This document shows, piece after piece, positions 1 through 32,000 of a stretch of DNA of 32,000 bases (within the stretch, counting starts at the first letter, position 1; each line of letters begins with the position of its first letter). The notes under the pieces were generated by a model, which ran no database searches, was not told the DNA's origin, and was given only the letters and a program-made list of their open reading frames with translations. A program made the translations under genes and the position numbers. Source of the DNA: Candidatus Kuenenia stuttgartensis (GTDB lineage Bacteria; Planctomycetota; Brocadiia; Brocadiales; Brocadiaceae). Where the stretch lies: NCBI RefSeq assembly GCF_900232105.1, contig NZ_LT934425.1:3960001-3992000 (forward strand), written 5' to 3'.

Positions 1-1
1 C

Positions 2-14292: not shown

Positions 14293-15084
14293 TTAAAAAG
14301 ATTGAATTTCAGCAAGAGCCTGATGGAAGATATCCTGGGTAATTTTCTGTGATTGTCTGATGGAAGCGTTAATCAGGCAGGCGGTGGAAATGGCGTTGAT
14401 TTGCCTTGGGATGCCGGCGGAGAACTCATGGATCAGGTCTTTGACGTCTGAGTCAAAGATTTTATCGGATGCGCCGGAAGATTTCAGATGGAAGTCTATG
14501 TATGCAGCGGTTTGAGTTTTAGTAAGGGGATGAATGTGGTAATGTACCGAGATGCGTTGTGCGAAGTCGGCATGGATGTCTCTTTTGAGGATATATTTGA
14601 GGTGTTCCTGTCCCGAGAGGATGATTTTGAGATGAGTGGAAGAATCAAGCGGAGAGCTGACAAGGAGTCTGAGGTCTGTGATGGCGTCGGTTTTCAGGAG
14701 ATGAGCCTCGTCGATAACGATAATGGGAGTGAGATTTGAGCGCAAGGATTTATCCATAATTTGGAGGAAGAGCCGGTCTTTGGTGTGTTTTGGTATTTCA
14801 CCGAGCTGGGAGACGATTAAGGAGAGAAGGCTGGATGATTTTAGGTGGGTAAAATGGAGGTAGATGGGGAGAAACAGGTTTTGGGGGATTTGTGAGAGGA
14901 AGAGTTTGAGGAGTGTGGATTTTCCGACTCCCGTCTGTCCGTAGAGGACGGCGATAGAGCCTGAGTGTAAGAGGTATTGGAGTCGTGCAAGCCCCTGGGT
15001 AAAGCGTTCGTCTTTCATGATAAGGCTGGTGTTGATTCTTTCAGAGAACGGCTGAGTAGTCATGGAAAAATGAGAAGTAAACAT
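14293..15084 (-). CDS. TniB/ExeA-like AAA+ ATPase (transposition helper)
   Basis: Walker A is YGQTGVGKSTLL and Walker B is IIVIDEAHLL. At 263 aa it lies directly downstream of the rve transposase, with a 2-nt gap. Confidence 0.8.
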   Translation of the reverse strand: MFTSHFSMTTQPFSERINTSLIMKDERFTQGLARLQYLLHSGSIAVLYGQTGVGKSTLLKLFLSQIPQNLFLPIYLHFTHLKSSSLLSLIVSQLGEIPKHTKDRLFLQIMDKSLRSNLTPIIVIDEAHLLKTDAITDLRLLVSSPLDSSTHLKIILSGQEHLKYILKRDIHADFAQRISVHYHIHPLTKTQTAAYIDFHLKSSGASDKIFDSDVKDLIHEFSAGIPRQINAISTACLINASIRQSQKITQDIFHQALAEIQSF

Positions 15085-15086
15085 GG

Positions 15087-17693: not shown

Positions 17694-18056
17694 TTGGGCA
17701 TTTTTGGAGCATTTATTCTAAGACGTAGCAGAAAGAGGGCTACCTGCGAGACTTTGATAGAAGAGAGTAAAGGACAGATGAATGCGGGGCACATACGTAC
17801 GGGTGAATTTTTGGCCAATGCTGCGCTATTTCAGTGTGCGGTGTTAGCGTATAATCTTTTGAAGTGGATGGGATTGCTCAGTGGTGGAGTGATACAACAG
17901 TGGGAAGTAAAGACGATGAGACTGTGGTTAATCCGTGTGGCAGGGAAACTGGTGGAGAGAAGCCGGCAGATGACATTAAAATTGCCGGAGAAATTTCTCC
18001 ATCAGGAGGAATGGGAAAAGTGGGAACGCATGTCACTGGATGTAGTTTTTCAGTAG
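17694..18056 (+). pseudogene. C-terminal remnant (~110 aa) of an IS1380/IS4-group DDE transposase
   Basis: RKRATCETLIEESKGQ...GEFLANAALFQCAVLAYNLLKWM...MRLWLIRVAGKLVERSRQMTLKL matches the recalled conserved C-terminal block of IS1380-type transposases. No N-terminal two-thirds is present. Confidence 0.65.
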
Positions 18057-18336: not shown

Positions 18337-19068
18337 ATGAAGGTTTGCAATAAAATTGGCAAGCCGATAGAACTTGGTATGAGTAAATTACCAGCAAAGG
18401 CACAGAAGGTGATTGAAAAAGCAGTAAAAGCTAGTCTTGAACGAGCGCTCAAAGCTGCTGTGTTTACCCTGAATACATCGGAAAATACTAAACCATCAAA
18501 TTGGCGGCATCGTATTGCTGTAATAGTTACTGGCGCAGTGGGTGGTGCTTTCACTTGGATAGCGCTGCCATTCGAATTGCCAATATCTACAGTCATTATG
18601 CTCCGTTCCATTGCCGATCATGCGCGGTCACAGGGTTTTGATATTACAGATTATAAAACCCGCATGGAATGTTTAAGCGTCTTTGCTTTAGGATCGGACA
18701 TAAAACCTGAAAATGTAAATGAATCGTCTTATTATGCAGTAAGAGGCGCACTGGCAAAACTCCTTACCGAAGCGGCAGAATACATTGCGCAAAGGGCAGG
18801 GGTTGAGGCAATTACCGAGGAAACAGAAAGGCTGCTTGCCCCGCAAATTGTAAAATTTATTGAGAAAATAGCAACTCGTTACGGTATTGTTGTAACAGAA
18901 AAGGCGGCAAGCGTTGCGATACCGTTAATCGGCGCTGCCGGTGGAGCAATAATTAACACGCTCTTTATAAATCATTTTCAGGATGCCGCCAAGGCGCATT
19001 TTACTATAAGAAGGCTTGAACATAAATACGGAGGGGAAATTGTCCGAATGGTTTACGAAAAAATGTAA
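18337..19068 (+). CDS. EcsC-family protein
   Basis: GAVGGAFTWIALPFELPISTVIMLRSIADHARSQGFDITDYKTRMECLSVFAL parallels the B. subtilis EcsC block GAGGILLGLADFPLLLSIKMKFLFEAASVYGFDVKDYEERLFLLHVFQL, recalled from memory. No ecsA or ecsB is nearby. Confidence 0.65.
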   Translation: MKVCNKIGKPIELGMSKLPAKAQKVIEKAVKASLERALKAAVFTLNTSENTKPSNWRHRIAVIVTGAVGGAFTWIALPFELPISTVIMLRSIADHARSQGFDITDYKTRMECLSVFALGSDIKPENVNESSYYAVRGALAKLLTEAAEYIAQRAGVEAITEETERLLAPQIVKFIEKIATRYGIVVTEKAASVAIPLIGAAGGAIINTLFINHFQDAAKAHFTIRRLEHKYGGEIVRMVYEKM

Positions 19069-19279
19069 CCACCAAAAAACAGCAAAATGGTGGATGTTTT
19101 AAAGAAAGTCGAAACTATGTTTCTGGTTGTATCGCTGAATTGCAACTACCACAAGTAAAAGGCAAATGCAAGGTTAATTTAGGTAAATACGAGGAGTTAA
19201 TAAATGCTAGCGTGAGTTTATCACAAAATAAGGCATGAAGCAACGTAACATAAATACAGTCAATGCGTTAAGCACAACA

Positions 19280-21016
19280 TCAATTGTATACACTGAGTCC
19301 TTGAAGTTTCAGCCGATGTTTGTGGAAATCCATAATGCCTAACGCATTCATCAACAGAGATTCCTTGTCGGACATTTCTTCCAATTTGTAGGTAGCCTTA
19401 ACTCTCCCTCTGGCCTTTGTTTCTTCAAGCATAGCAGAAAGCCTTATATTATTAAGGGTGTCTAACAGGGTATCTAACGTTCCACTAAATTGTGCGTGCG
19501 CTTTTGCCTGATACCACACAATCGCCGCCATTAGGTATCCGAGGACGCAAATAAAAAAATGCACCCTGATTTTCTGATCCGTCCAGTGAAATTGCGGTTT
19601 TAAAGCAAGGTGATAGGGGTTCTTGAGATTTCTAAAGGCATGTTCAATTTTTGATTGCCCATAGTAGGCTTTTATAATGTCCGCGGTATCCCAATCGTGA
19701 TGGTCTGTCATAAGAATCCTGAACCCCAGTTCCCCTTCTATTTCTTCGAGCTTTTTCTGGTCGATTGAAAAATTCAATTGAAACTTGCCTTCAGATACCT
19801 CTTTTAACGACCAATCGATAACATCCTTCGCAAATTGACATTTCACTACACTTCTTATCGTATCCTCCAGACCCTCTTTGTCCCGCATCTTTCCCTTTGG
19901 ATTACACAGATGCTGCTGTAAGAGCTTTAACTGATGTTCTGCCTTTTCCAGAGACTGAGACATTCCCCTTAATTGCCCAACCTTTAATTTCTCGGAAATA
20001 AATACGACAACGGTTCTTTCCTGCCCCCAAATAACCCGTTTGTCATGGTACACCTGTATCTTACTGCCGTCAACGTCATATTCCCTGAAATTACACATGG
20101 CATCCCCTACCAACTGCTTGTGATGATACGGTGTAAGCGCTCCAACGTAATGCAATGCCAATCTCTCTACAATAGCCATATTGTCCATGGAATTGTTTCC
20201 ACGATCAAAAACAATAGTGTGCTTTTTGCTGTCGAAACCTAATCCGGTCATCCTGTCTTTTATCGTCTCAAGAACCGCGCTGAACACCTTTGCATCCGCC
20301 ATGTTCCCCTGATAGGTATGGTGAAACAACGGTATCATGTCGTTACGTGTAACGACCATCGCCAACCCGACCTGCCTGAGATCGTATCGCTTTTGTTTGT
20401 TTTTCCCCCGCCGGGCAATAGTGCATCGCAGATTAGTTGTGTCGATATACGTGAAAAAATTGGTTGTATCAAAAAACAGTGTGTCGCTTTGAAGGTTGTA
20501 TGTTTTAAATGTCTTTTCAATTAATTCGCGCTCGATTTCTGCAATGGATTCTTCAGGAAGTGCATCCATCAAATCCCAGAAATGCTGACTGTCTATTTTA
20601 CTCAAGCTGTGTCTGAGTAAGTATTCGGCAGTAGTCGTCTTTGCCCAATCCCACCATCCTCTTTTGCTGGTAGGCACACACACTCTCCCCACGGCACCCA
20701 ACAAGAGGGTACTTCCGGCGGTCAGATTATTTCGAACAGGTTTTTTAGCACAATACTGCCGTGGCGACTTTATATATTTATTAATCACGGAAGGGACGTC
20801 CAGGGCATTGGCCACACTTAGCAATGCGGCTACCGCGCCATGTGAATAAGATTTGAGCCGTAATTTTTCGGTAAGACCTTGCAGTTGTTTTAATAAATCG
20901 TCTGCCTTGCCAAGATAGGCCAGGACGATGGGCCTGGGCTTGCCGTTAACGCGCCGCGATTCGACAATATACCAATATTTATAACCTCTGGAGTTTTTAG
21001 ATTGAATGGTAGCCAT
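19280..21016 (-). CDS. IS1634-family (IS4-like) DDE transposase, full length
   Basis: N-terminus is MATIQSKNSRGYKYWYIVESRRVNGKPRPIVLAYLG. DDE-region strings are LFFDTTNFFTYI, IVFDRGNNS and YYGQSKIEHAFRNLK...IRVHFFICVLGYL. Confidence 0.88.
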   Translation of the reverse strand: MATIQSKNSRGYKYWYIVESRRVNGKPRPIVLAYLGKADDLLKQLQGLTEKLRLKSYSHGAVAALLSVANALDVPSVINKYIKSPRQYCAKKPVRNNLTAGSTLLLGAVGRVCVPTSKRGWWDWAKTTTAEYLLRHSLSKIDSQHFWDLMDALPEESIAEIERELIEKTFKTYNLQSDTLFFDTTNFFTYIDTTNLRCTIARRGKNKQKRYDLRQVGLAMVVTRNDMIPLFHHTYQGNMADAKVFSAVLETIKDRMTGLGFDSKKHTIVFDRGNNSMDNMAIVERLALHYVGALTPYHHKQLVGDAMCNFREYDVDGSKIQVYHDKRVIWGQERTVVVFISEKLKVGQLRGMSQSLEKAEHQLKLLQQHLCNPKGKMRDKEGLEDTIRSVVKCQFAKDVIDWSLKEVSEGKFQLNFSIDQKKLEEIEGELGFRILMTDHHDWDTADIIKAYYGQSKIEHAFRNLKNPYHLALKPQFHWTDQKIRVHFFICVLGYLMAAIVWYQAKAHAQFSGTLDTLLDTLNNIRLSAMLEETKARGRVKATYKLEEMSDKESLLMNALGIMDFHKHRLKLQGLSVYN

Positions 21017-21119
21017 GGCTATTAGTTGTTAGTGTATACGTAATAGATTAATACTCCGTGTATAATAGTATATACAGGCATATAATGCAATATAAATATA
21101 GTATTATTCAGTGTATACA
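19285..21119 (-). mobile_element. IS1634-family insertion sequence, apparently complete (~1.84 kb)
   Basis: Perfect 12-bp terminal inverted repeat, tgtatacactga at 19285-19296 and tcagtgtataca at 21108-21119, brackets a single 578-aa transposase gene. A related agtgtatac motif also occurs at about 21033-21041. Confidence 0.7.
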
Positions 21120-21160
21120 TAATTTTTTAGACAAAAAAAGTCGCAACCCGATACAAATCA

Positions 21161-23344
21161 TTGGATTGCAACTTGATGTCTTTGTCTTACACCTTATTTC
21201 GTGATAAACTCACGCTAGAACATTATGAGCAGAAAAAACAGGCAGTTTTAGATTTGGCAGATATTTATTTGAAAGATCGGCCGGAGACTAAAGACGTTGG
21301 TTTCCATGCAATGAAAAAAAATTTAGAAGATAGCAAATATATTTTAGCCGTTGTTGGTGAAGTAAAGGCGGGCAAATCAACGTTTATAAATGCCTTACTG
21401 AAAGAAGAAGTGTTACCAAGCGGTGTCTTGCAAAATACAAAGGCAATTATTGAAATTGAAAAACCCAAAGAAGACGAAAACGGAAGAAAGTATATTAAGG
21501 TTGTCTGGGGTAATAAAGATAATGAAGGTAAAAACGTAGAAACTATTTTTGAATCGGAAAACAAAGAAGACCTTAATAATGAGCTTAAAAAGATCGCTGC
21601 TGTGGACACAAAATACAGGGATATACCGACTACTGTTATTGATGGCTATTTACTTAATGACATAGCAGAGATACCAATAGAAGCATTAGAAAGAGAAGGG
21701 GAATATTCCTCCTTAACAGGAAAGGAAAGCCTTATAAAAAGTTATATAGAAGAATACAAAGATAAGTCAAAAATACCTGTGGAAATCCATTTTGTATATC
21801 CATTGCAGTACTCTTTCAGCGATTTGGTAGTAGTAGATAGCCCTGGGGTAAATGCAAGAGGTGGAATACAAAGAAGAACCAGGGAATCCATTTATAGAGC
21901 GAATGCAATAATATTTGTCCGGTCGCTTGAAACACCGGCAGAACACACATCTTTTCGTGAATTTTACAGAGAAGTAATTCCTGACAGACCAAAGGAAACA
22001 CTGTTTCTGGTCTTTACTAAAGCACAAGATAAAGACGAGCTTGATTTAAAAAAAGATGAAATCAGAGAAGACATATCTGAAATATCTGAAGAAAAAATCA
22101 TTGGTGTTGATAGCCTATGCAGATTATTGCAATTTGAATTAGAAAAATATAAAACTCCAGACGAATTAATTGATACTTATAAAAAACAGAAGACTGAACT
22201 ATCTGAACAGTTAAATAAAGCCAGCAATGATACAAAAAAAGAATTAAGGGAAAAAATTGTTGTAATAAATAATAAATTGAAAATCCTTGAAAGTATTCCC
22301 TTTAAAGAAAACAAAAAACAATATTCAGATGAGTTAAAAAAGATGTCAAATTTTGACAAAATGGAGGAAATCATTGAAAAGTTTTCTACCCAAGCTCCAC
22401 TCCAACAATTACAAGAGATTTTAGAAAGTATTAAAGAAGGCTACAAATCTCAAAGTGAAATATTAAAAGAAAATATAAAACTTAAAGGAATGAAAATAGA
22501 AGAGCCTCAAAAATTGGAAATAAAAATCAAAGAGCTAATGGATGCCCTTAAAGAATACGAATATGATAAAGGGGAATTTGTACGAAAATTGGGATATAAA
22601 TACGGCGGAGAACAAGCCTTATATATGGATAACATCAAAAAAATTAAAGAATCTGTAGACAATATTTTATTACAGGATTCCGAGGATAAAATTTTCAAAG
22701 AGTGTGAAAATATAGAAAACATGATACGGACAGTGACAGATAAAGTGGTAGAAGAAATATCTGATGAAGTATTAAATTACTTCAATGAGAAAAAAGTCGA
22801 ATTTAAAGAGAAATATGATATTACCATTCCAACCGTTAATGTAAATACGTTAAAAACCGCTGCAATGGAAAGTTCTTACGATGAAAGAGATGATTATAAA
22901 GATGAGAAAAAGACACAGTTAGAAAGAAAATGGTATACTTTATGGGTTTATCGACACACAAGAGAATACTTTGAGAAAGTTAAAACTGGTACTATTAAGG
23001 TATTCAATAATGCAAAATATTTGGAAAAATTAAAAAAAGAATTAAAAGATGAAAATTGGAAACGAGTAGACAATTTACAAAAGGAGCATATTAAGCCTAT
23101 TGTCAATAAATATTGCGAATCAGTTATAAGAGAGACTGACAACCTTATTGAAGAAAGAAAAAAAAGCCTAAACGAACTATTAGAAGAAAGCAAAACGAAT
23201 GATCGACATATAAAAGATATTAAGAAATTAAAAAAAAAGTTAGAAGATATAGGAAGTGATAAAGAAGGTGAAGAAAAAGGGAAACTGAAAGAAGTAAAAA
23301 ATCAAATATCTATCATATCAGGGAAAGGAGAAACCTTAAAATGA
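21161..23344 (+). CDS. Bacterial dynamin-like GTPase with a long K/E-rich coiled-coil C-terminal half
   Basis: G1 P-loop is GEVKAGKST (nt 21356-21382), G3 is VVVDSPGVNARG, and LVFTKAQDKD is G4-like. The start is TTG 21161 or, more likely, ATG 21176. The last ~430 aa are lysine/glutamate-rich heptad-like sequence. The stop overlaps the next start (ATGA). Confidence 0.85.
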   Translation: MDCNLMSLSYTLFRDKLTLEHYEQKKQAVLDLADIYLKDRPETKDVGFHAMKKNLEDSKYILAVVGEVKAGKSTFINALLKEEVLPSGVLQNTKAIIEIEKPKEDENGRKYIKVVWGNKDNEGKNVETIFESENKEDLNNELKKIAAVDTKYRDIPTTVIDGYLLNDIAEIPIEALEREGEYSSLTGKESLIKSYIEEYKDKSKIPVEIHFVYPLQYSFSDLVVVDSPGVNARGGIQRRTRESIYRANAIIFVRSLETPAEHTSFREFYREVIPDRPKETLFLVFTKAQDKDELDLKKDEIREDISEISEEKIIGVDSLCRLLQFELEKYKTPDELIDTYKKQKTELSEQLNKASNDTKKELREKIVVINNKLKILESIPFKENKKQYSDELKKMSNFDKMEEIIEKFSTQAPLQQLQEILESIKEGYKSQSEILKENIKLKGMKIEEPQKLEIKIKELMDALKEYEYDKGEFVRKLGYKYGGEQALYMDNIKKIKESVDNILLQDSEDKIFKECENIENMIRTVTDKVVEEISDEVLNYFNEKKVEFKEKYDITIPTVNVNTLKTAAMESSYDERDDYKDEKKTQLERKWYTLWVYRHTREYFEKVKTGTIKVFNNAKYLEKLKKELKDENWKRVDNLQKEHIKPIVNKYCESVIRETDNLIEERKKSLNELLEESKTNDRHIKDIKKLKKKLEDIGSDKEGEEKGKLKEVKNQISIISGKGETLK

Positions 23345-23991
23345 TTTTAAAAACGGGGACTCAAAAAATTTATTCGGTAGTTGATAATGCCTTTACGGAA
23401 CTTCAAGCAGATATTAAAAGAAGGTACAATCTTAATGGCAATTACAGCATTGACGAGGTGAAAAATCAAATCGTTGATGGTTTGTCTGGTATGATTGCAT
23501 CAAGAACGAATGCACTTCTTGATACACTACGGAATTTACTCCTGGATGATGCCGCAACCTACCTTAAAAAAGCGCCTATAGACACAAGAAATAATTTTTA
23601 TAAAAAGGGTTTTAAAGAAATGATTGAGAGATCATTTCAATTCAAGTCAGATAATTTAATTTGTTCTCATGACCCAAGGGTTCTGGGCAGTTGTATTACC
23701 GGGGGTAGTACATTATTAGCGGGTGGTTTAATTGCATTCTTTATTTTTTCGGGTCTTTGGCCAAAGGTAATTGCAGGAATTGTTGCCCTCGCACTATCTG
23801 GCACAACAGCAGGTATTGCTTACAAAAGAATGCTGCCAAAGGCACGGGAACAATTTGAAAAAGACATTGAATCATTTCTCAGTGCAACGAAGAAACAGTT
23901 GATAGAAGAATTTGATCATTTAACAAACAAATTTTTTAGTGAATTCGAGATGTTTTGCAAAAACGAAGGTTTTGGGGGGATAGATCAATGA
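23341..23991 (+). CDS. Membrane protein with a central 2-TM hairpin (operon partner of the dynamin-like GTPase)
   Basis: 216 aa. The hydrophobic stretch STLLAGGLIAFFIFSGLW-PK-VIAGIVALALSGTTAGIAY is flanked by ~125 aa and ~50 aa soluble regions. ATGA overlaps occur at both ends. No family was recognised. Confidence 0.7.
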   Translation: MILKTGTQKIYSVVDNAFTELQADIKRRYNLNGNYSIDEVKNQIVDGLSGMIASRTNALLDTLRNLLLDDAATYLKKAPIDTRNNFYKKGFKEMIERSFQFKSDNLICSHDPRVLGSCITGGSTLLAGGLIAFFIFSGLWPKVIAGIVALALSGTTAGIAYKRMLPKAREQFEKDIESFLSATKKQLIEEFDHLTNKFFSEFEMFCKNEGFGGIDQ

Positions 23992-26900
23992 CGGAAGAAA
24001 CAATCGTAAAAAATAAAGAAACGGTTAAGGAAATTGAAAGTTTGTTTGAAAATATACTTCCTTGGTCACCACTATCGATTGATAGCACAATTAATAACAA
24101 ATTGGAAGAAACACCTTTTTTGGGCGGAATCTATTTCTTTCCAATCTATGAAATTACAATAGCAAACAATAGAGAAGACATACCGGAATTAATCAGGAAA
24201 CGATTTCTCAATATTCTGGCAGCATCCTACAAATCACAAAATAGCGTCATAACAGTGTTCAAGGGAGAAAAAGACAAATTACAGGTATATATTGGTTTCC
24301 AACTCAACACCCATAGTGGAATAAATACTACAAAACCAGAAGTTTTCCAAAGTATAGTAGAAGGCGTCATTCCAGGCTCAAAAACAAAGCTAGACCGAAC
24401 AATAAACCTTCCTGATATGATTTCGGATAAAAAATATGGCGGTATCATTTCTGGAATCCCTACCATAAAAATTGAGGATGAAAAGCAACATTTCAATATC
24501 TCCTCTGTAATTCGTAGTCTCTATGGCGAAGAATTTGTTCTGGCAATTATTTCAAAGCCTATTTTACCAGATGAATTATCCCAACAGTTTTTAAATGTAT
24601 TAAAGGCAAGAGATGTTTGCCACCAATTTGCTGTTCAAACGAAAGGTTCGGAAGGTGGAGGAAGTAGAGGCGAGCAAAAGTCTGAGACGATAACAGAAAG
24701 TAAAACACTTGCTGAAGGTTTAATTGCGAAGATTGTTGAGAGCGTAAAGGTTTTGCGCAACAAGGATAGTACACATAATGAAGAAGGTTTTTGGGCAGGT
24801 TTAATTTATAGTTATAGCAAACAAAAATCAGGATGCGAACAAACTGGAAAAAGTTTTGAAGAACACTGGGGACAAACGTTGAATAAAGAAATTCAAGATG
24901 GTATGGCAAAAGAGTTAGAACAAATATCAGATAATTACCTAAAAAGGCTAAAAAAAGGTATGAATGTAGGTTTCTGGGAAACGTCAATTACATTTGCTAC
25001 TGCAACTACAGAAGGGAGAGACAAGCTGGCAGGCAGCTTTTTGGGGGAATTGGGAAAACCAACAGATGAAAATTTCCCTGCACAATCTATCTTTGCCTCT
25101 ATTGACAAAAACAAGATTCTCTTAATACCAAAGGTTGACAATATCAGTCAGATATTCCCAAAAAGTTTGTGTTCCTATATTACAAGCGAAGAACTGGCAC
25201 AAATTGCTTCTCCGCCCATTGAATCACTGCCTGGCTATGAGATAAGAAGGATTCCAAATCTTAGCATGACAGATACACAACTAGATACTGCACAACAGCA
25301 TATTGAAATTGGCAAAATATGTGACTTTGGGAAACCAATACCTGCCTCATCATTTAATATCACACAGAAAGACTTTTCCAAACACATATTTATTTGTGGA
25401 TTAACTGGTAGTGGAAAATCAAACACGGCAAGGCAATTAATTAAAAATATTGACGTGCCCTTTTTACTTCTTGAATCCGCGAAAAGAGATTACCGACAAC
25501 TCCTAAGAAATAGAAAATTTAAAAATATCCTCAGAATATATACCATCGGAGATACGACAGTTTCTCCTATTCAATTTAATCCATTTTATATAATCCCTGG
25601 TGTCTCTCCAACTACCCATATTGACTACTTGAAAGCCATTTTTAATGCAAGCTTTTCAATGTATGGTCCTATGCCTCATATTGTAGAAAAATGTTTACAC
25701 ACTATTTATCAAAAGAAGGGATGGAATTTAACGAAAGGCACTCATCCCTTTCTATTTAAAGAAGGAGAGCCTTTAAGAAACAAAGAAAACGTTTCATTAT
25801 ATAAACATGATGAGGCAAAATTTTGTTTTCCCACGTTAAATGACCTGAAAGAAGAAGTTGAGCTTTATGTGAGCGAATCAAAGTACAGAGGGGAGTTGAA
25901 AGATAATATACAAGCTGCCATTATTACGCGATTGGAGAGCCTTTGTGTAGGCGCTAAGGGTGTCATGTTTAATACATTAATGCCTCCGAATATTCAAAAC
26001 CTGCTTGCGTACCCCGCAATTTTTGAGTTAGAACCATTGTCCGATGACGATGATAAGGCATTTTTAGTTGGGCTAATGCTGGTATTTATCACTGAATACA
26101 GACAATTAACAAATCCTGCCACAAGTCCAATTGTTAAAAAAAGAGGGCTGGAACATCTGTTGATTATAGAGGAGGCGCATAGATTATTAAAGAATGTAAA
26201 CACTGAACGCCAAATGGAAATGGTTGGCAACCCAAAAGGCAAAGCTGTTGAAACATTTTGCAATGTCATAGCGGAAATGCGCGCTCTGGGCCAGGGAGTT
26301 ATTGTTGTAGAACAAATACCTACAAAAATAGCGCCTGATGTTATAAAAAACACTAACACTAAAATAGTCCACCGGTTGGTTTCAAAAGACGATCAAACAT
26401 TACTGGCAGGTTCATTGAACCAATCGGATGAAGATGCACTTTATTTAGGTTCATTAAAGACAGGACATGCCTTATGTCACAAAGAAGGAATGGACAAACC
26501 CATTGAGGTAGAAATTAATTATTCAGATGATTCATGGCAAGTAAGTAATGAAAATGTGAAAAGTTTAGCACAGAATAAACAGTTATTACCGCAAGATATT
26601 TATCTGGAATTAAATGACTTTAAGTCTTGCGTTGGTAAGGCGGGTAAAGAAATTGTTTTTAAATTTTTAAATTCTCTTCTTACTTTAAACGATGATGAAT
26701 TTAATCATCTTCTTGCGAAAGTTCAAGGTGAATTAAAAAAGCTTTGTGTGGAGAACAACTATATCAACTATTTTGGTACAGATACAATACAACATTTTAT
26801 CGTCCATCAAATCACTGAAATATTTTCACGTGGAGTTTACTGTATTGGATGGAAGTTTCCAACGGGGCTGATAAGTATTGCAAAAGAATTAATTAAAGAG

Positions 26901-27131
26901 GAAAAACATGACTCGTTAGAAAGGCTAAAAGAGTTAATAGCCAATTATTGGAATGTAAAAAATACGAAAGAAGGTATTTGTGAAATTATTACAAAATTGG
27001 TACGCAAATATCATATTGACAAAAAACTAAATCATTTTGATAGTTTCGTCTTGGAGAGGATTATAAAAGACTATTTTCTTATAGTAGATAATTCAATATG
27101 TAATGCGATTCTATATCATGTAATGCAATAA
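23988..27131 (+). CDS. Large HerA/FtsK-type (DUF87-like) P-loop ATPase with a ~470-aa unrecognised N-terminal region
   Basis: Walker A is ICGLTGSGKSNT (nt 25398-25424) and Walker B is HLLIIEEAHRLL (nt 26154-26180). Downstream GQGVIVVEQIPTKI and NTNTKIVHRL are typical of HerA/VirB4-like ATPases. The likely start is ATG 23988, overlapping the upstream stop as ATGA (the ORF track starts at 23955). Confidence 0.8.
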   Translation: MTEETIVKNKETVKEIESLFENILPWSPLSIDSTINNKLEETPFLGGIYFFPIYEITIANNREDIPELIRKRFLNILAASYKSQNSVITVFKGEKDKLQVYIGFQLNTHSGINTTKPEVFQSIVEGVIPGSKTKLDRTINLPDMISDKKYGGIISGIPTIKIEDEKQHFNISSVIRSLYGEEFVLAIISKPILPDELSQQFLNVLKARDVCHQFAVQTKGSEGGGSRGEQKSETITESKTLAEGLIAKIVESVKVLRNKDSTHNEEGFWAGLIYSYSKQKSGCEQTGKSFEEHWGQTLNKEIQDGMAKELEQISDNYLKRLKKGMNVGFWETSITFATATTEGRDKLAGSFLGELGKPTDENFPAQSIFASIDKNKILLIPKVDNISQIFPKSLCSYITSEELAQIASPPIESLPGYEIRRIPNLSMTDTQLDTAQQHIEIGKICDFGKPIPASSFNITQKDFSKHIFICGLTGSGKSNTARQLIKNIDVPFLLLESAKRDYRQLLRNRKFKNILRIYTIGDTTVSPIQFNPFYIIPGVSPTTHIDYLKAIFNASFSMYGPMPHIVEKCLHTIYQKKGWNLTKGTHPFLFKEGEPLRNKENVSLYKHDEAKFCFPTLNDLKEEVELYVSESKYRGELKDNIQAAIITRLESLCVGAKGVMFNTLMPPNIQNLLAYPAIFELEPLSDDDDKAFLVGLMLVFITEYRQLTNPATSPIVKKRGLEHLLIIEEAHRLLKNVNTERQMEMVGNPKGKAVETFCNVIAEMRALGQGVIVVEQIPTKIAPDVIKNTNTKIVHRLVSKDDQTLLAGSLNQSDEDALYLGSLKTGHALCHKEGMDKPIEVEINYSDDSWQVSNENVKSLAQNKQLLPQDIYLELNDFKSCVGKAGKEIVFKFLNSLLTLNDDEFNHLLAKVQGELKKLCVENNYINYFGTDTIQHFIVHQITEIFSRGVYCIGWKFPTGLISIAKELIKEEKHDSLERLKELIANYWNVKNTKEGICEIITKLVRKYHIDKKLNHFDSFVLERIIKDYFLIVDNSICNAILYHVMQ

Positions 27132-27151
27132 TAAAATCGGAGGACCAATTA

Positions 27152-27718
27152 ATGATGGAACCTATTTCAGCAAGTGCTATGGCACATGCTGCCAAAGAAA
27201 TGGCGGTTAGAGAAATTCCAAAGGAGGCTACAGAAACAGGTTTAAAAGAGTCTGTACTCAGCGAGCAATTGGATATTATTAAAAACAATTCTCTGGAGTC
27301 TTTAGAGGCACAAGATGAGGCATTTTCTCAAAGACTCAAAGAATACAAAACGCAAGTTGAGATTAATTACGAAATGGGAGATTTCAGAGAGAAAAATGTT
27401 TTTAGTGAATTAAAAGAAAATTATCCTGAAAAAGATGGTTACAAAATTTTCCCAGAACGCTATCTATGCGATAAAGAAGGTAAAATCGTCAGGGATACGG
27501 TTTCAAGAGAAGCAAGGAGAATTGATTTCTTGATAGGAACAGATAGAGAAATCATGAAGTCTATCGAAGTTACATCTGAAAAAGCTCCAAAGGAAATGCA
27601 ATTAGCAAAAGAAGAACGAATTCGTGAACAAGGAGGGAATTATATAAGATTGCCTGAAACAGGTGAACTAATAATATTTCCATCAAATATAAAAACCGAA
27701 ATTTGGCGGAGGGCTTAA
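27152..27718 (+). CDS. Hypothetical protein; C-terminal half has a weak restriction-endonuclease-fold-like pattern
   Basis: Strong SD GGAGG (27139-27143) lies 8 nt before the ATG, 20 nt after the ATPase stop. The C-terminal pattern FSELKE...RRIDFLIGTD...KSIEVTSEK resembles E...hD...ExK-type nuclease cores, but the canonical Lys is displaced. Function is not established. Confidence 0.6.
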   Translation: MMEPISASAMAHAAKEMAVREIPKEATETGLKESVLSEQLDIIKNNSLESLEAQDEAFSQRLKEYKTQVEINYEMGDFREKNVFSELKENYPEKDGYKIFPERYLCDKEGKIVRDTVSREARRIDFLIGTDREIMKSIEVTSEKAPKEMQLAKEERIREQGGNYIRLPETGELIIFPSNIKTEIWRRA

Positions 27719-27719
27719 A

Positions 27720-28295
27720 ATGAAAAAAATAAAAGTTTATGACAAAGTAAAATGGCATTATCCAGAGGGCAAAAATTGTACTGATCTGGACTCTGCAAAA
27801 ACTCATTTTAAAATCATTATGGAATGGTTAAACAAAAATAACCTTTTAACACCATACGGTAGAGAGATATATGAAATCGGAATAGATAGTGATTTTTCTT
27901 TGACGTCAGAAATGGTAAATGAACAAGGCAATTTGATTTTGCAAAAATGCTATAAGATCTGGCTCAAGATGATTGATTATAAGAAACGTCCTGATGTAGC
28001 AGTTTTTGAGGGATGCCTTAGAGATGTAATGGAAGATAAGAATATGGAGCTAGATATATTAATTCGAATAGTAATCAAAAAAAAAGAATTTGAAAAAAGA
28101 ATTGGCAAGAAACCTACAAGGTTGTATCTCACCTCAAGTGATGAACAGGACATAACAGCGTTGCCTGCAACAAAAATTGGAGAATTAGCCGGTTTTTTTG
28201 CTCAATATGGGGCAAAAGAAGCAATTAAGAGAACTGGAAATAAATTTAAAGAAATGGAAGTTATTTGGGATTCTCCGGAGTTTAAAGTTGAATAA
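27720..28295 (+). CDS. Hypothetical protein (possible immunity/partner of 27152-27718)
   Basis: The ATG lies 1 nt after the upstream TAA (taaaatg). At 191 aa, no motif was recognised. Confidence 0.6.
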   Translation: MKKIKVYDKVKWHYPEGKNCTDLDSAKTHFKIIMEWLNKNNLLTPYGREIYEIGIDSDFSLTSEMVNEQGNLILQKCYKIWLKMIDYKKRPDVAVFEGCLRDVMEDKNMELDILIRIVIKKKEFEKRIGKKPTRLYLTSSDEQDITALPATKIGELAGFFAQYGAKEAIKRTGNKFKEMEVIWDSPEFKVE

Positions 28296-28348
28296 TATAT
28301 CAATGACGTTATATAGCGCATATATTAATAAAATCAAAGGAGTCTAAA

Positions 28349-28858
28349 ATGACAAAATTTGAAGAACTGTGTAATTCATATCGCCTATCAAGAAAAAAAT
28401 ATTTCGATTATAAAAACGAGTGTGTTAATTTTGCTGAAAAATTAGTCAATGGGATGATTGATCATTTTGAATGTCCTAAAGAACAAATAAAGTACTTTTC
28501 TCCCAAAGACCAAGTTATACCTGATAATGATTCTTTTCAATCGCTAAGAGGTGTAATGACTTTAGAGGACGATACCTTCTGGCATTTTCGGATTGGGCTC
28601 ACCTTATATGAATCGCATGAGATAATAACACCACGCGAAATAGTAACAATTCACATCCTTCTTAAGAAAATTAATGAACGTTTTATTGTCAAAATTAATA
28701 CTTTTGAGGAAAAATTTGAGATTAATGGGAATAGTCCAGAGGATTTTGAAAAATTTTATGAATTTATATTCAACAAAATTAAAGAAGATTATGAAAAAGA
28801 CTTTGAAATTTTCTCTGAAGGAGAAAAAGATACTGTAAGAAAAATTGGTTTTAAATGA
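28349..28858 (+). CDS. Hypothetical protein
   Basis: 169-aa ORF with SD aaaggag 6 nt upstream of the ATG and AT-rich codon usage consistent with its neighbours. No motif was recognised. Confidence 0.55.
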   Translation: MTKFEELCNSYRLSRKKYFDYKNECVNFAEKLVNGMIDHFECPKEQIKYFSPKDQVIPDNDSFQSLRGVMTLEDDTFWHFRIGLTLYESHEIITPREIVTIHILLKKINERFIVKINTFEEKFEINGNSPEDFEKFYEFIFNKIKEDYEKDFEIFSEGEKDTVRKIGFK

Positions 28859-28883
28859 TAATATGAGGAAAGACTTAGGGGAG

Positions 28884-28933
28884 ACTTGGGGTCGCATCTT
28901 AAATATTAAGCCAGGTTGGATTGAGGCACAACT
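28884..28933. repeat. Partial copy of the repeat found at 30897-30955
   Basis: cttggggtcgcatctt...aggttggattgaggcacaa aligns with cctgaggggtcaaatct...aggttgggcttgaggcacaa. Both start within about 10-30 nt after the stop codon of a small + strand gene. Confidence 0.6.
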
Positions 28934-29017
28934 CGAAGAGAAAGCAAGAATCACAGGAAATTTAAAACCCGGTATTCTTGTATTTTCTGTCTTCCTCAGA
29001 TTAGGAGAATAAAATCA

Positions 29018-29272
29018 ATGCCCACAATCTTATACATAAATGGTTGGAGGATTTACTTTTTTGCAAACGAAAGCAATGAGTCTATTCATGTGCATTGCCA
29101 GAAATCAGAGAAAAGATGCAAATACTGGCTTGATAAAGAGCTTTTTGAAATCGAAGAGGCGCATAGTTATAATATGAATAATAAAGACAAACGAATCGTG
29201 CGTAAAATTATTTTTGAACATTTCGACTACATCGTTGAGCAATGGGAGAAATTTGAAGAAAGGAAATGGTAA
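29018..29272 (+). CDS. DUF4160-family small protein
   Basis: MPTILYINGWRIYFFANESNESIHVHCQKSEKRCKYWL matches the recalled DUF4160 pattern (MPTI..G.....y..eH.PPHfH..........i). It is paired with a DUF2442 gene, as is usual. Confidence 0.7.
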   Translation: MPTILYINGWRIYFFANESNESIHVHCQKSEKRCKYWLDKELFEIEEAHSYNMNNKDKRIVRKIIFEHFDYIVEQWEKFEERKW

Positions 29273-29541
29273 TGGAAAAAGCTCATATAGTGGAAAACCT
29301 TGAAATCACCGCAGATGAAATTCGTATGAAGATAGACGGAAAACAACATTCGTTTAAGATAGCCGAGATATCGCAACGGCTGAAAAAAGCAACACAGAAA
29401 GAGCGAGAATACTTCGAGATATGCCCTACCGGGTACGGCATACATTGGCCGCTTATTGACGAAGATCTGTCAATTGACGGACTCCTTGGCATAAAGCACA
29501 TACCGAAAAGGCTGAAAACAAAAGAAACTACGGTAAAATAA
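29266..29541 (+). CDS. DUF2442-family small protein
   Basis: C-terminal FEICPTGYGIHWPLIDEDLSIDGLLG matches the recalled DUF2442 signature (G.gihWp.lDeDis...Ll). It overlaps the DUF4160 gene by 7 nt; an alternative start is ATG 29272. Confidence 0.7.
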   Translation: MVMEKAHIVENLEITADEIRMKIDGKQHSFKIAEISQRLKKATQKEREYFEICPTGYGIHWPLIDEDLSIDGLLGIKHIPKRLKTKETTVK

Positions 29542-29795
29542 CAGGGTATTCCGTCAGGCAGACAGGATTTCGGACGGCGGAATTCTGATTGCAGATGGTT
29601 TTAATTCTGAAGGTGTATAAAGAAAAAGAATGCGCAAAGCAAGACAGGATGATATGCAGGGAAAAGGAAAAGACTGGAAATTCCTCTGGGAAGAACTATG
29701 CATAAAATAACGTTTTTACCCGATGCCGAGGATACTTTTAAAAAATAAGATAAACCTGCAACACAGGACTGGGGGGCAAAACTGAGGGGAATTAG

Positions 29796-29829
29796 GGTAC
29801 ACATCCCATATTTTTTAGGGATGTGTACC
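29796..29829. other. Perfect 12-bp stem hairpin (ggtacacatccc / gggatgtgtacc) with a 10-nt loop
   Basis: Read directly: stems at 29796-29807 and 29818-29829, loop atatttttta. No flanking T-run on either strand, so it is not a canonical terminator. It lies 45 bp upstream of the 29874 start. Confidence 0.5.
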
Positions 29830-29873
29830 TATAATTTACTTTTATAAGAATCTTTTGGTAAAAGGAGTCTCAA

Positions 29874-30149
29874 ATGATAGATGTAAAACAAGCCAGCAAA
29901 TTAGCTATAGAATATTTCACGACTTTATTTGAAAATAAGTATAGTAATTTAACCCTTGAAGAGGTAGAGGTCTCGGGAGATGGTAAATATTGGTATATAA
30001 CACTTGGTTACGATATAGACAAACCTTTTTCTGTCACACTTCCTCTTAGAAAGACAGGGAGAGAATATAAGCGTTTCAAGATAGATGTTGAATCAGGCAA
30101 AGTCTTATCAATGCAAATTAGAAAACCTGACCAAATTCAGAACTTCTGA
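29874..30149 (+). CDS. Hypothetical small protein
   Basis: 91-aa ORF with SD aaaggag. The translation-initiation context is nearly identical to that of 28349. No family was assigned. Confidence 0.55.
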   Translation: MIDVKQASKLAIEYFTTLFENKYSNLTLEEVEVSGDGKYWYITLGYDIDKPFSVTLPLRKTGREYKRFKIDVESGKVLSMQIRKPDQIQNF

Positions 30150-30401
30150 TCCGTGGAATTCTGTTTGATGCCAAATTGCAAGAAGTGCAGTCGCTCACAC
30201 GTATCCATGTTGCTTATTTTCCTGTATGTATGCACCACACAAGCAGATTCGGCGGACAATACTCCTTTTTTATGAAAATAGGGATCACATCATTTTCCAA
30301 TCAGCAAGGAAACGACTTCTTTCTGTCTATCACATATCTAACTATAATTGTTAGACTTGGATGTTTTTTACTGAAAAATACATTTCAGGAGTTTTGAATT
30401 T

Positions 30402-30884
30402 ATGGATTATATAAAAATTTTTAATAAATATCGTAATAAAGGCGTGCTGATAGATTCAAATCTCCTTATATTATTTTTTGTCGGCACATATAATCAATCG
30501 ACCATTCAATGTTTTAAAAGAACGCAAAAATATAACATCGAAGATTTTGAACTATTAGAGTCCTTTATTAAGTATTTTAAAAAGGTAGTTACTACCCCTA
30601 ACATTTTGACGGAGGTAAGCAATTTGTGTGGAAAGCTACCAGAGATATTTAAGTTAGAATTTGCTAAACATATTGAACTGTTAGATGAATATTATACTCC
30701 CAGTCGCCATATCAGTAAATTAGAACATTTTAAAAAGTACGGTCTTACGGATTCTGGTATTATAAATTTAGTGAAAGGGGAATACCTTGTTTTGTCAGAT
30801 GATTGGCCACTTGTTAGTTTTATGCAGGTAAAAAATATTGATACAATAAATTTCAATCATTTAAGGTATGTCAATTGGAGTTAA
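30402..30884 (+). CDS. PIN-domain nuclease-like protein
   Basis: Acidic residues at PIN-typical spacing: GVLIDSNLLI (D18), TTPNILTEVSNL (E71), GLTDSGIINL (D117) and LVLSDDWPL (D133/134). Confidence 0.6.
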   Translation: MDYIKIFNKYRNKGVLIDSNLLILFFVGTYNQSTIQCFKRTQKYNIEDFELLESFIKYFKKVVTTPNILTEVSNLCGKLPEIFKLEFAKHIELLDEYYTPSRHISKLEHFKKYGLTDSGIINLVKGEYLVLSDDWPLVSFMQVKNIDTINFNHLRYVNWS

Positions 30885-30936
30885 AGGAGAAGATGACCTG
30901 AGGGGTCAAATCTCTATTATTGGCGTACCCAGCAAG

Positions 30937-31078
30937 GTTGGGCTTGAGGCACAAAACCCAACGGTTAAATGTCGCGAACGGCAGTGAAACTGGGACTTTC
31001 TTTTTGATGTAACGAGTTTCGCAGGTTGGCCTGAATAATTTGAATCGTTGGGTTTCGCTTCGCTCAACTCAACTCAAC
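30937..31078. repeat. ~140-bp imperfect palindromic element with attC-like core sites
   Basis: Small hairpin 1 is gttgggc-ttgaggcacaaa-acccaac (30937-30962). Small hairpin 2 is gttgggt-ttcgcttcgctc-aactcaac (31047-31073), roughly the reverse complement of hairpin 1. acccaacggttaaat (30956-30970) pairs imperfectly with atttgaatcgttgggt (31038-31053). acccaac fits RYYYAAC and gttgggt fits GTTRRRY, and the two lie 98 bp apart. Confidence 0.6.
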
Positions 31079-31168
31079 ACGACTTATTTAACAAAAAATG
31101 TATATCGGATATACGTATTAAGAAAATTGCTTGTGGTAAAATGATAAAAAGATGAATCTGGGGTAGAC

Positions 31169-31380
31169 ATGACCAGTATCAAAGAGATAAAATTTATCGT
31201 AATGTTAACGTCGGAAGACAGATATCGTCATTGTCATATTAGATTCAAAAGACAAGTTATCCGTTTTGCTGTACAATACGAAACCAAATTTTAAGGCAAG
31301 TGGCTGCCTGTGGTGAGATATGATACAGAACACGGTTTCGCCCATCGCGATTTATTAGACAAAGAAGGTATAGTAAAAAG
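31169..31380 (+). pseudogene. Decayed small ORF with an in-frame stop, 3' end displaced by IS630
   Basis: ATG 31169...QYETKF, then TAA (31292-31294), then in the same frame GKWLPVVRYDTEHGFAHRDLLDKEG. The frame then runs into AT-rich sequence preceding the IS630 transposase. The family was not identified with confidence. Confidence 0.35.
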
Positions 31381-31446
31381 CATTTATTTTTATAAAAATC
31401 TGTTTTTTTCTTGCATTTGAATTGTTTCTAGAGTATTAAATTCTGC

Positions 31447-32000
31447 ATGAATCCATTTCTCAGTGAAAAAACCCGAATAGAATTTAAAAAAGCACATAAG
31501 AAAGAGCCTCATAGACGTCATGCCGACCGAATCAAAGCTATACTTCTTCTTGATTCAGGATGGAGTTATGAAGAAGTAGCAGAAGCGCTCTTGTTAGACG
31601 ATCAAACAATCAGGAATTACGAAAAACTATACAAAGATAAAGGTTTCGACGGGCTTTTATCTGACAATTATGTTGGCTGTATGCCAAAACTCACTTGCGA
31701 ACAAGAAGAACAATTAAAAGATCATATCAGGAAAAACAACTATAGCGCGGCAAAAGAAATTGTTGAATATGTAAAACAGACATTCAATAAAATCTATACA
31801 CCCGAAGGAATGGTACATACCCTCGATAGATTAGGCTTTACTTACAAGAAAACTACAATAGTTCCAGGCAAAGCAAACCCTGAAAAACAAAAAGAATTTA
31901 TCGAAAACTACAAACAACTCAAAGAAGAGAAAGCCCCTGGAGATAAGATACTTTTTATGGATGGAGTTCATCCACAGCACAATTCTACGTCTGCATATTG
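31447..32000 (+). CDS. IS630-family (Tc1/mariner-type) transposase, 5' part (runs off the window)
   Basis: It is absent from the ORF track because no stop is reached. My own translation from ATG 31447 is MNPFLSEKTRIEFKKAHKKEPHRRHADRIKAILLLDSGWSYEEVAEALLLDDQTIRNYEKLYKDKGFDGL...IVEYVKQTFNKIYTPEGMVHTLDRLGFTYKK...KILFMDGVHPQHN. This gives two HTH modules and then the first catalytic-Asp block typical of IS630 transposases. Confidence 0.8.
   Translation, partial: MNPFLSEKTRIEFKKAHKKEPHRRHADRIKAILLLDSGWSYEEVAEALLLDDQTIRNYEKLYKDKGFDGLLSDNYVGCMPKLTCEQEEQLKDHIRKNNYSAAKEIVEYVKQTFNKIYTPEGMVHTLDRLGFTYKKTTIVPGKANPEKQKEFIENYKQLKEEKAPGDKILFMDGVHPQHNSTSAY

Follow-up and report, generated by a model that had tools for sequence, protein, structure and literature searches.

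A widespread five-gene cassette joins a dynamin-like GTPase and a HerA/VirB4-clade ATPase to a polymorphic toxin/immunity pair: an apparently undescribed candidate conflict system

Background

What might be the function of an operon that encodes a dynamin-like GTPase, a small membrane protein, a HerA-type ATPase of more than 1000 residues and two further small proteins? The question is raised by positions 21161-28295 of a 32,000-nt stretch of the genome of Candidatus Kuenenia stuttgartensis (contig NZ_LT934425.1, positions 3,960,001 to 3,992,000); this whole stretch is referred to as the window, and all coordinates are window positions. An original prediction, made from the letters of the DNA, had proposed a conflict system and had guessed that the downstream gene pair might be its effector. 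For the comparison presented here about 100 homologous loci were collected (designated by L-numbers), the gene order was checked wherever the sequence sufficed, and non-redundant sets of 79 fourth genes and 69 fifth genes were compiled.

The proposal of a conflict system is supported by the comparison. The five genes appear to constitute a self-contained, horizontally mobile conflict cassette that is widespread and apparently undescribed. The guess about the downstream pair was right as well, and the pair has an identity that the original prediction missed: gene 4 encodes a nuclease toxin of the polymorphic kind, the N-terminal tag of which is constant, and gene 5 its cognate immunity protein. 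We infer that the products of genes 1 to 3 associate with the cytoplasmic membrane and form a conserved, co-evolving nucleoside triphosphatase (NTPase) machine there. The best explanation for the remaining two genes is that the gene 4 product is a client of this machine and the gene 5 product keeps the DNase inert. Judged from the sequence comparisons, the cassette may serve defence against phages or other mobile genetic elements inside the producing cell, with a probability of about 0.5, and we consider defence more likely than export of the toxin.

Results and discussion

A single operon repeated in many lineages

Genes 1 to 5 form a single tightly coupled operon (Table 1). The sequence bears out the ATGA overlaps described for the junctions of genes 1 and 2 (at 23341) and of genes 2 and 3 (at 23988), the gap of 20 nt with a GGAGG Shine-Dalgarno site between genes 3 and 4, and the ATG of gene 5 located 1 nt past the TAA of gene 4. 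No terminator-like site was detected between the genes in a promoter/terminator scan that was otherwise uninformative. A chance arrangement can be excluded, because the identical gene order repeats in about 90 independent loci: a dynamin-like protein of ~680 aa, a hairpin protein of ~210 aa, an ATPase of ~1050 aa, a gene product of 190-330 aa and one of 100-160 aa, all encoded on the same strand by genes that overlap or are separated by tiny gaps. The G+C content of the cassette is ~29-36%, and mobile elements lie on either side of it.

Hundreds of full-length relatives of gene 3, at ~43-50% identity, were found in organisms as diverse as Vibrio, Halopseudomonas, Thiofilum, Tenacibaculum, Proteiniphilum, Deltaproteobacteria, Dehalobacter, Lachnospiraceae, Cloacimonadota and Brocadiaceae. 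The loci of the cassette span the Gammaproteobacteria, Bacteroidota, Deltaproteobacteria, Firmicutes, Cloacimonadota and Planctomycetota. The co-occurrence of the three large genes in other genomes had been set beforehand as a test of the proposal; a dynamin homolog was found upstream of the ATPase gene in 63 of the 65 loci for which at least 2.9 kb of upstream sequence was available.

Genes 4 and 5 encode a polymorphic toxin and its immunity protein

The fourth gene of the cassette belongs to different nuclease families in different loci. LHH proteins account for 53 of the 79 fourth genes according to Pfam, nine are WHH/Colicin-DNase proteins and one is an Endonuclease_NS_2 protein. Most of the remaining ones are other nucleases; they include another HNH protein, two types resembling restriction endonucleases (REase-like), a PoNe-type toxin and one HExxH protein. 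The fifth genes follow suit with families of immunity proteins: 52 of the 69 encode SUKH (SMI1_KNR4) proteins, six encode DUF7832 proteins (the type found in the window) and one encodes a PoNi protein.

The N-termini are alike where the C-termini are not. All fourth genes start with an acidic, poorly ordered segment, after which comes a helix-break-helix that carries a short conserved motif. In the AlphaFold2 (AF2) model of gene 4 a disordered acidic start is followed by a helix-break-helix structure with a conserved motif at the break, LDIIKNNSLESLEAQ (residues 37-54, nt 27260-27313). The consensus of this tag motif is (P)D-h-x-x-I-x-x-x-S-h-E-x-h-x-x-x-N, and other clades have the variant '...DDIKNMTPEQL...'. 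A hidden Markov model (HMM) of the motif matched 44 of the 79 toxins at 4-32 bits, where the 99th percentile for shuffled sequences was 1.9 bits.

The C-terminal domain of gene 4 has no match in Pfam, nor does the Pfam scan reveal any recognised trafficking domain in the protein. Alignment of 41 homologs yielded the invariant positions D125, E139, T141, S142, K147, Q150, E154, R156, R158 and G161-G162-N163, and the same domain is found elsewhere behind unrelated N-termini, including an OmpA fusion. The AF2 model shows an alpha/beta fold with a predicted local distance difference test (pLDDT) score >90. The top list of its Foldseek matches consists mostly of PD-(D/E)xK enzymes (McrC, Bax1, the R2 endonuclease, TnsA, MGME1 and Cas4) at non-significant E-values of 0.05-1, and for that reason we regard the domain as a probable nuclease, predicted to be PD-(D/E)xK-like.

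The immunity gene of the window is a composite. Its DUF7832-type half is 48-58% identical to genes of 100-111 aa that follow the same type of toxin in six loci (L011, L012, L013, L022, L025 and L034), the toxins of which are in turn 45-47% identical to gene 4. Its second half is 43% identical (E 2e-16) to a stand-alone gene of 83 aa in L005, a Brocadiaceae locus that is the closest relative of the cassette in the window (its ATPase is 75% identical), and there this gene follows a different toxin. Residues 1-58 of gene 4 share 47% identity with the N-terminus of the L005 toxin, the toxin domains being unrelated. The C-terminal half of gene 5 is probably what is left of a cassette that was displaced, now joined in frame to the end of the DUF7832 domain.

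Several features that define polymorphic toxins (Zhang et al. 2012) are found here: a conserved N-terminal region combined with highly variable C-terminal toxin domains, an adjacent downstream immunity gene that co-varies with the toxin domain, and replacement of toxin C-terminus/immunity cassettes by recombination. A fourth feature of such systems is export to other cells by a recognised mode of trafficking (type II, V, VI or VII secretion systems, Photorhabdus virulence cassettes (PVC) and others). The identification of genes 4 and 5 as a toxin/immunity pair makes export for inter-bacterial antagonism a serious rival to defence. In that case the ATPase would read the tag, strip off the immunity protein and drive the DNase out of the cell, with the immunity protein protecting siblings, and the route would be a pore or a membrane remodelled through vesicle budding or fusion, for which the dynamin-like and hairpin proteins would be responsible. 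We regard export of this kind as possible, if on the unlikely side.

Cassette replacement and co-variation

The replacement of one toxin/immunity pair by another can be observed in the loci L015 and L018. From the dynamin gene as far as codon ~65 of the toxin gene, the two loci share 90-95% of their DNA sequence; past this point they are unrelated, and LHH with SUKH stands against WHH with SUKH. This abrupt divergence is a classic toxin/immunity cassette swap. The comparison of the window with L005, together with the putative relic domain in gene 5, supports the same process in the history of the window.

Pairwise identities over 48 loci, not corrected for phylogeny, indicate which parts of the cassette vary together. 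The dynamin-like protein, the hairpin protein and the ATPase are correlated with one another (r 0.75-0.85), and the same holds for the toxin C-terminus and the immunity protein (r 0.80). The toxin C-terminus is nearly uncorrelated with the toxin N-terminus (r 0.13). The N-terminal 60 residues of the toxin vary with the C-terminal domain of the ATPase instead (r 0.68, or 0.52 as a partial correlation that takes the ATPase core into account), and the corresponding partial correlation with the dynamin-like protein is 0.11.

A second client was found solely in the metagenomic locus L055 (6979-9181), where two tandem clients with near-identical N-terminal tags succeed each other: a 328-aa protein, and an LHH toxin followed by a SUKH gene. 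Orphan toxin/immunity arrays 3' of the cassettes, which were considered as a sign of delivery between cells, are otherwise essentially absent; the apparent extra genes turned out to be mis-called genes or frameshifted toxins.

The NTPase genes

Gene 1 encodes a dynamin-like GTPase (Dynamin_N, E 1.7e-20), the GTPase domain of which (~residues 60-290) is followed by a long helical stalk rich in Lys and Glu. The nearest solved sequences are the mitofusin Fzo1 and the Nostoc bacterial dynamin-like protein (BDLP) 2j68. The motifs claimed for it stood up in part: in 66 homologs the P-loop (G66, G71, K72, S73 and T74; G1) and D226-x-P228-G229 (G3) are conserved in at least 95%, whereas the G4 motif TKAQD is present yet weakly conserved. 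Translation probably starts at the ATG at 21176 instead of the TTG at 21161.

The gene 2 product had been described as a membrane hairpin protein, and the hydropathy scan agrees. The sequence of this family is poorly conserved, yet the hairpin is kept in 67 of 67 members, and a role as membrane anchor or paddle of the dynamin-like protein is probable. The PADLOC profile LeoBC matches the two proteins weakly, its N-terminal part the GTPase part of gene 1 (E 5e-8) and its C-terminal part gene 2 (E 2.6e-4); no match to the LeoA profile was found in the cassette. Genes 1 and 2 together resemble a split BDLP or a split LeoBC, and would keep the ATPase attached to the cytoplasmic membrane.

The gene 3 product combines an ATPase core with domains of its own (Table 1). 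It matches DUF87, the mad8 and HerA models of PADLOC, and the CedD and HerA families of NCBIfam. The NCBIfam matches of the cassette all remain far below the cut-off (CedD 66 bits against 600; HerA_antiphage 28 bits against 800), and the HerA models of PADLOC cover the protein in part, with the best stretch at residues ~720-850 in addition to stretches around the P-loop. The proposed Walker A (G471, T473, G474, S475, G476 and K477) and Walker B (E728, E729, A730 and H731) motifs are invariant in 25 homologs. The protein contains a single P-loop domain, and no transmembrane segment was found in the hydropathy scan. Foldseek searches with the AF2 model (pLDDT 72) returned HerA (4d2i, E 6e-14), VirB4 (4ag5, TM-score 0.71) and the C-terminal domain of DndH (7es4, TM-score 0.70). 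The matches of the core comprise archaeal HerA and the HerA proteins of the SIR2-HerA and DUF4297-HerA defence complexes, VirB4/TrwK and the DndH C-domain, which places gene 3 in the HerA/VirB4 clade; the core does not decide between DNA and protein as the substrate. The N-terminal region of 440 residues is specific to the family. When 1.84 billion cluster representatives were searched exhaustively with HMMER, it turned up in 135 proteins, nearly all of which are ~1000-1180 aa long or fragments of such proteins.

In all homologs the N-domain of the ATPase is broken by the disordered Ser/Thr/Gly-rich loop, the family consensus of which alternates as x-S-x-T. A distant NCBIfam family, 'ser_rich_anae_1 serine-rich protein', matches residues 302-813 of gene 3.

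A module for conjugation or for DNA translocation during uptake, similar to VirB4, TraC or CedD, has to be considered for such an ATPase, and the original prediction had kept it as its alternative. VirB4 and TrwK are among the Foldseek matches, and there are weak matches to P-loop_TraG and TrwB, both below threshold, besides the one to CedD. On the other hand, HerA defence helicases match gene 3 equally well or better, the conserved partners of the ATPase are a toxin and an immunity protein, and no relaxase, VirB/Tra, pilus or coupling-protein genes occur in the nine 10-kb contexts that were annotated with Pfam. The ATPase does not lie inside conjugative elements in these contexts, and identity with a type IV secretion system (T4SS) or conjugation system was rejected. 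This alternative is very improbable.

Genomic context

Inserted at varied chromosomal sites, the cassette behaves as a self-contained unit. Its flanks were surveyed by way of 143 open reading frames (ORFs) within 5 kb and the nine loci mentioned above. The commonest neighbour family is WYL, with seven members among the 143 ORFs. In L031, L032, L041/42, L050, L054, L055 and L092 a WYL(-WCX)/BrxR gene directly precedes the cassette on its strand, and in L006 and L098 one lies close by. PADLOC identified among the neighbours a type III restriction-modification (RM) system, a type IV REase, DRT, JukA, dGTPase, Cas1 and candidate systems. Three of the nine contexts are clear defence islands: one in Tenacibaculum with RM, GmrSD and SNF2/DUF4391, one on a JGI contig with ScoMcrA, GmrSD and an integrase, and one in V. 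metschnikovii with a ZorA-like gene, BrxR and an integrase. Another three are rich in mobile genetic elements or toxin-antitoxin (TA) genes, and three are neutral.

The proximity of insertion sequence (IS) elements, integrases, resolvases and TA genes, and the self-contained nature of the insertions, would fit a selfish module for addiction or stabilisation of mobile elements, in which genes 4 and 5 act as a TA-like pair that the NTPase machine regulates or partitions, and which would take no part in phage defence or export. Two small genes suffice for such a purpose, so that the ~2000 co-evolving NTPase codons and the co-variation of tag and ATPase would be left unexplained. Moreover, no close homolog was found by tblastn among the 72,556 plasmids of PLSDB, which contain only paralogs of 24-35% identity, and a single locus was found in a scan of viral contigs (IMG/VR). 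We consider an addiction module improbable.

In-cell defence or toxin export

For defence within the cell we envisage the following mechanism. The dynamin-like protein and its hairpin partner would place a hexamer of the ATPase at the membrane, at sites of phage DNA entry or of membrane perturbation, and the complex of toxin and immunity protein would dock onto the C-terminal helical domain of the ATPase via the tag. Upon a trigger, ATP hydrolysis would engage the disordered N-terminus of the toxin and strip off the immunity protein; alternatively, the ATPase might feed translocated DNA to the nuclease. The freed DNase would then destroy invading DNA, host DNA or both, which amounts to abortive infection. 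In some loci a WYL/BrxR-type regulator would control expression.

Several observations favour in-cell defence over export. WYL/BrxR regulators adjoin the cassette and defence genes are frequent neighbours, and both are atypical of secretion loci. The same five genes are found in monoderms and diderms, which argues that the system does not depend on the type of envelope; the cassette has no outer-membrane, cell-wall or surface component, and its sole membrane protein is a hairpin with two transmembrane helices. The toxins, of 190-330 aa, are too small to have space for receptor-binding or translocation domains, and the hydropathy scan detected no hydrophobic segment resembling a signal peptide in toxins or immunity proteins. 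Nearly all clients are DNases, in line with the partnership of HerA-clade ATPases and nucleases, whereas known export systems have broad repertoires. The near absence of orphan immunity arrays speaks for defence. Finally, Eleos, a system made up of dynamins only, and DynA act against phages in experiments.

A number of points weigh against in-cell defence, and most of them speak for export. The swap on a background of 90-95% identity and the relic immunity domain retained in gene 5 suggest diversifying selection between strains. Protein export, too, is driven by ATPases of the FtsK/HerA/VirB4 type, namely in T4SS and type VII secretion systems (T7SS), and VirB4 is among the best structural matches of gene 3. 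The helix-break-helix form of the tag, with its motif at the break, recalls the WXG/LXG substrates of the FtsK-like T7SS ATPase. The dynamin-like LeoA of enterotoxigenic Escherichia coli (ETEC) promotes vesicle release. One and the same tag serves two differently armed clients in L055, and the first of these carries an HEMGH (HExxH, metallopeptidase-like) motif and has no adjacent immunity gene. Strong defence neighbours were encountered in just three of the nine loci with 10-kb flanks. The co-variation of tag and ATPase C-domain could stem in part from the adjacency of their DNA, and the co-variation figures carry no phylogenetic correction. The nuclease fold of the toxin in the window rests on its motif and on non-significant Foldseek matches. 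In the polymorphic-toxin literature, the combination of LHH, WHH, colicin-DNase or PoNe toxins with SUKH or PoNi proteins, a constant N-terminus and a swapped C-terminus is the hallmark of toxins delivered between bacteria, and this logic is directly visible in the cassette. The dynamin-like proteins IniA and IniC promote vesicle release in Mycobacterium tuberculosis, according to PMC10240201.

In the light of these points genes 1 to 3 might represent a protein-delivery apparatus of an unfamiliar type, which would recognise the tag, strip the immunity protein and export the DNase by dynamin-driven membrane remodelling such as vesicle budding or cell-cell fusion. We put this forward as a doubtful suggestion, and continue to favour defence inside the producing cell.

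The cassette and its surroundings in the window

The features of the cassette are listed in Table 1.

Table 1. Positions of the genes of the cassette and of the domains and sites within them
Feature	Position	Strand	Basis
Gene 1, dynamin-like GTPase (727 aa if started at TTG 21161)	21161-23344	+	Pfam Dynamin_N
Gene 2, helical protein of 216 aa; membrane hairpin of two helices at residues 117-161	23341-23991	+	hydropathy scan
Gene 3, 1047-aa HerA/VirB4-clade P-loop ATPase	23988-27131	+	DUF87/HerA matches
Gene 3 N-domain, family-specific, alpha/beta	residues 1-215 and 303-355	+	AF2 model
Gene 3 disordered S/T/G-rich loop	residues 218-302; 24639-24893	+	AF2 model
Gene 3 beta-barrel	~residues 366-460	+	AF2 model
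Gene 3 ATPase core	~residues 460-850; 25365-26537	+	AF2 model
Gene 3 C-domain, all-helical, fast-evolving	residues 854-1047; 26547-27128	+	AF2 model
GGAGG Shine-Dalgarno site of gene 4	27139-27143	+	direct sequence reading
Gene 4, toxin	27152-27718	+	
Gene 4 N-terminal constant tag	residues 1-65; 27152-27346	+	motif HMM, L015/L018 breakpoint, AF2 secondary structure
Gene 4 variable toxin domain	~residues 70-188; 27347-27718	+	alignment of 41 homologs
Gene 5, immunity protein	27720-28295	+	
Gene 5 N-terminal half, DUF7832-type immunity	residues 1-105; 27720-28034	+	Pfam DUF7832 E 1.5e-4, below cut-off
Gene 5 C-terminal half, second immunity-like domain	residues 109-191; 28044-28295	+	homology to L005 gene

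The neighbourhood described by the original prediction was recovered in part. On the left, where an IS1634 element had been reported, the Pfam scan identified a DDE transposase gene at 19280-21016. The DUF4160/DUF2442 pair on the right is present at 29018-29541; the two genes overlap and are likely a small TA-like pair 3' of the cassette. An IS630-type (DDE_3) gene begins near the end of the window, as seen in a near-identical contig of a metagenome-assembled genome (MAG). The supposed PIN ORF (30402-30884) did not match any Pfam family at E<=1e-3, and no attC-like repeat family was detected in 28200-32000. Further to the left an IS21-like pair is located at 14293-16451 (AAA_22 at 14293-15084 and Mu-transposase/rve at 15087-16451), as are a transposase fragment (DDE_Tnp_1_4, 17694-18056) and a gene of the EcsC family (18337-19068). 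The base composition of the window shifts sharply: an ORF of 1561 aa is located in DNA of 57% G+C (1-4723), after which the G+C content is 35-43% (5000-32000), with a further G+C-rich patch (47-50%) at 14-17 kb, the position of the IS21-like pair.

The MAG contig (L097, GCA_027493715.1) is labelled Ignavibacterium sp. and is 99.9% identical to positions 19208-32000 of the window. Five indels and a deletion of 162 bp (window 21215-21376) break its dynamin and ATPase genes into pieces. The label or the binning of this MAG is doubtful, because other exact protein matches carry the label Candidatus Kuenenia stuttgartiensis.

The gene that follows the cassette (gene 6, 28349-28858, 169 aa) was considered as a sixth component or an orphan immunity gene and rejected. 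Its homologs are confined to the anammox bacteria Kuenenia and Jettenia, and in Jettenia it is present where there is no cassette. In the Jettenia locus L101 (6215-10504), gene 6 and the genes found upstream of the L005 cassette (a helix-turn-helix gene and a gene of ~220 aa) flank other genes, an arrangement that suggests a variable hotspot.

Remote relatives of the ATPase were found in other settings. The Exiguobacterium plasmid NZ_CP081879.1 (L096) carries a very distant four-gene variant in which the small hairpin gene is lacking; a 658-aa hypothetical protein, which occupies the dynamin position and is a probable counterpart of the dynamin-like protein, is followed by the ATPase, an HNH protein and an SMI1/KNR4 protein. 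The ATPase of this plasmid and that of an Oribacterium locus (L010, 7821-14549) share 25-27% identity with gene 3. In Oribacterium a downstream protein of 513 aa has a zinc-ribbon-like N-terminus and, by eye, a P-loop and a DxPG motif, and is a probable dynamin-like protein; the gene after the ATPase encodes a hydrophobic N-terminus and no nuclease. The Acinetobacter piscicola plasmid NZ_CP048660.1 (L095, 32603-42525) contains a WYL gene followed by a paralogous ATPase of 1047 aa (24% identity) and five unannotated genes, among which there is no dynamin or toxin annotation. The plasmid operon may represent another system that makes use of this ATPase family.

Significance

Should the cassette serve defence, no earlier defence system would have combined a dynamin-like membrane GTPase with a HerA-type motor and a swappable DNase gated by an immunity protein. 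It would offer a tractable model for the way in which membrane events lead to nuclease activation, and would show how ATPases free toxins that are bound very tightly by immunity proteins. Should the toxins be exported, the cassette would constitute a new secretion route that works in monoderms as well as diderms, and dynamins would have a new role in bacteria. Under either interpretation the new N-terminal tag predicts clients of the machine and helps to discover toxin and immunity domains; examples are the unannotated nuclease of the window, DUF7832 as an immunity family and the HExxH client. The cassette also gives a context to the ~1050-aa proteins known as 'DUF87/ATP-binding' in Vibrio parahaemolyticus, V. 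metschnikovii, gut Firmicutes, Bacteroidota and anammox bacteria.

Comparison with known systems

That the locus matches no named system, as the original prediction had it, is supported by PADLOC 2.0.0, which gave only weak matches at the level of domains (LeoBC, HerA and mad8), and by NCBIfam and Pfam, where no named system resembling the cassette was found. A published cassette of dynamin, DUF87/HerA and toxin genes was not found in the full-text literature, including two toxin papers of the Aravind laboratory; this literature was covered in part, and an earlier description is possible.

Eleos (LeoA/LeoBC) and the LeoABC operon of ETEC resemble the cassette in having a dynamin-like GTPase with an essential P-loop and a separate or fused membrane-inserting piece, and in their occurrence in defence islands. 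Eleos, the 'dynamin-like' defence system, is defined in the preprint of Millman et al. (2022) by a pair of consecutive dynamin-like genes that make up the whole of it. The cassette, in contrast, has one dynamin-like gene, together with a HerA-type ATPase and a toxin/immunity pair. Identity with Eleos was rejected: Dynamin_N is found in gene 1 only, and gene 2 has no GTPase domain.

SIR2-HerA (Nezha), HerA-DUF4297 and the archaeal HerA-NurA pair share with the cassette a hexameric HerA-clade ATPase paired with a nuclease or NADase effector, and these proteins are the best matches to the gene 3 core in structure as well as sequence. However, the ATPase of the cassette is twice as long, with a family-specific N-domain, the S/T/G-rich loop and a hypervariable helical C-domain; its effector is a polymorphic toxin, small and tagged, that is accompanied by a separate immunity protein, and a dynamin-like and a membrane protein are obligatory partners. 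SIR2-HerA and HerA-DUF4297 (Gao_Her, Nezha; HerA of ~550-600 aa) were rejected as identities, there being no SIR2 or DUF4297 in the cassette.

Energy-consuming, membrane-associated modules coupled to a nuclease or DNA-binding effector are also known from Zorya and Kiwa. The likeness is one of concept only, and we know of no homology of either system to the cassette.

The T7SSb systems with LXG/WXG substrates (EssC/YueA) likewise have an ATPase of the FtsK-HerA superfamily beside toxins with a constant helical N-terminus and a variable nuclease C-terminus, and an immunity gene downstream of the toxin. They differ from the cassette in that the latter occurs in diderm phyla and its tag has no LXG/WXG match detectable with Pfam. 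WXG100, EsaA, EssA and EssB are lacking from the cassette, and its ATPase has one P-loop domain and no transmembrane segment; identity with T7SSb was rejected.

The colicin-type and polymorphic pairs (LHH, WHH, Colicin-DNase and PoNe with SUKH and PoNi) agree with the fourth and fifth genes of the cassettes in family membership, in the order of toxin and immunity gene, in their overlap and in cassette replacement. Classical polymorphic toxins are set apart by their RHS, filamentous, PAAR, VgrG, signal-peptide or receptor domains, whereas the toxins described here are very short and have none of these, and carry a new N-terminal tag that ties them to the dynamin/HerA machine. The cassette can thus be likened to both polymorphic-toxin and HerA-effector systems, and the possibility that a new route of delivery is at work here is a real one.

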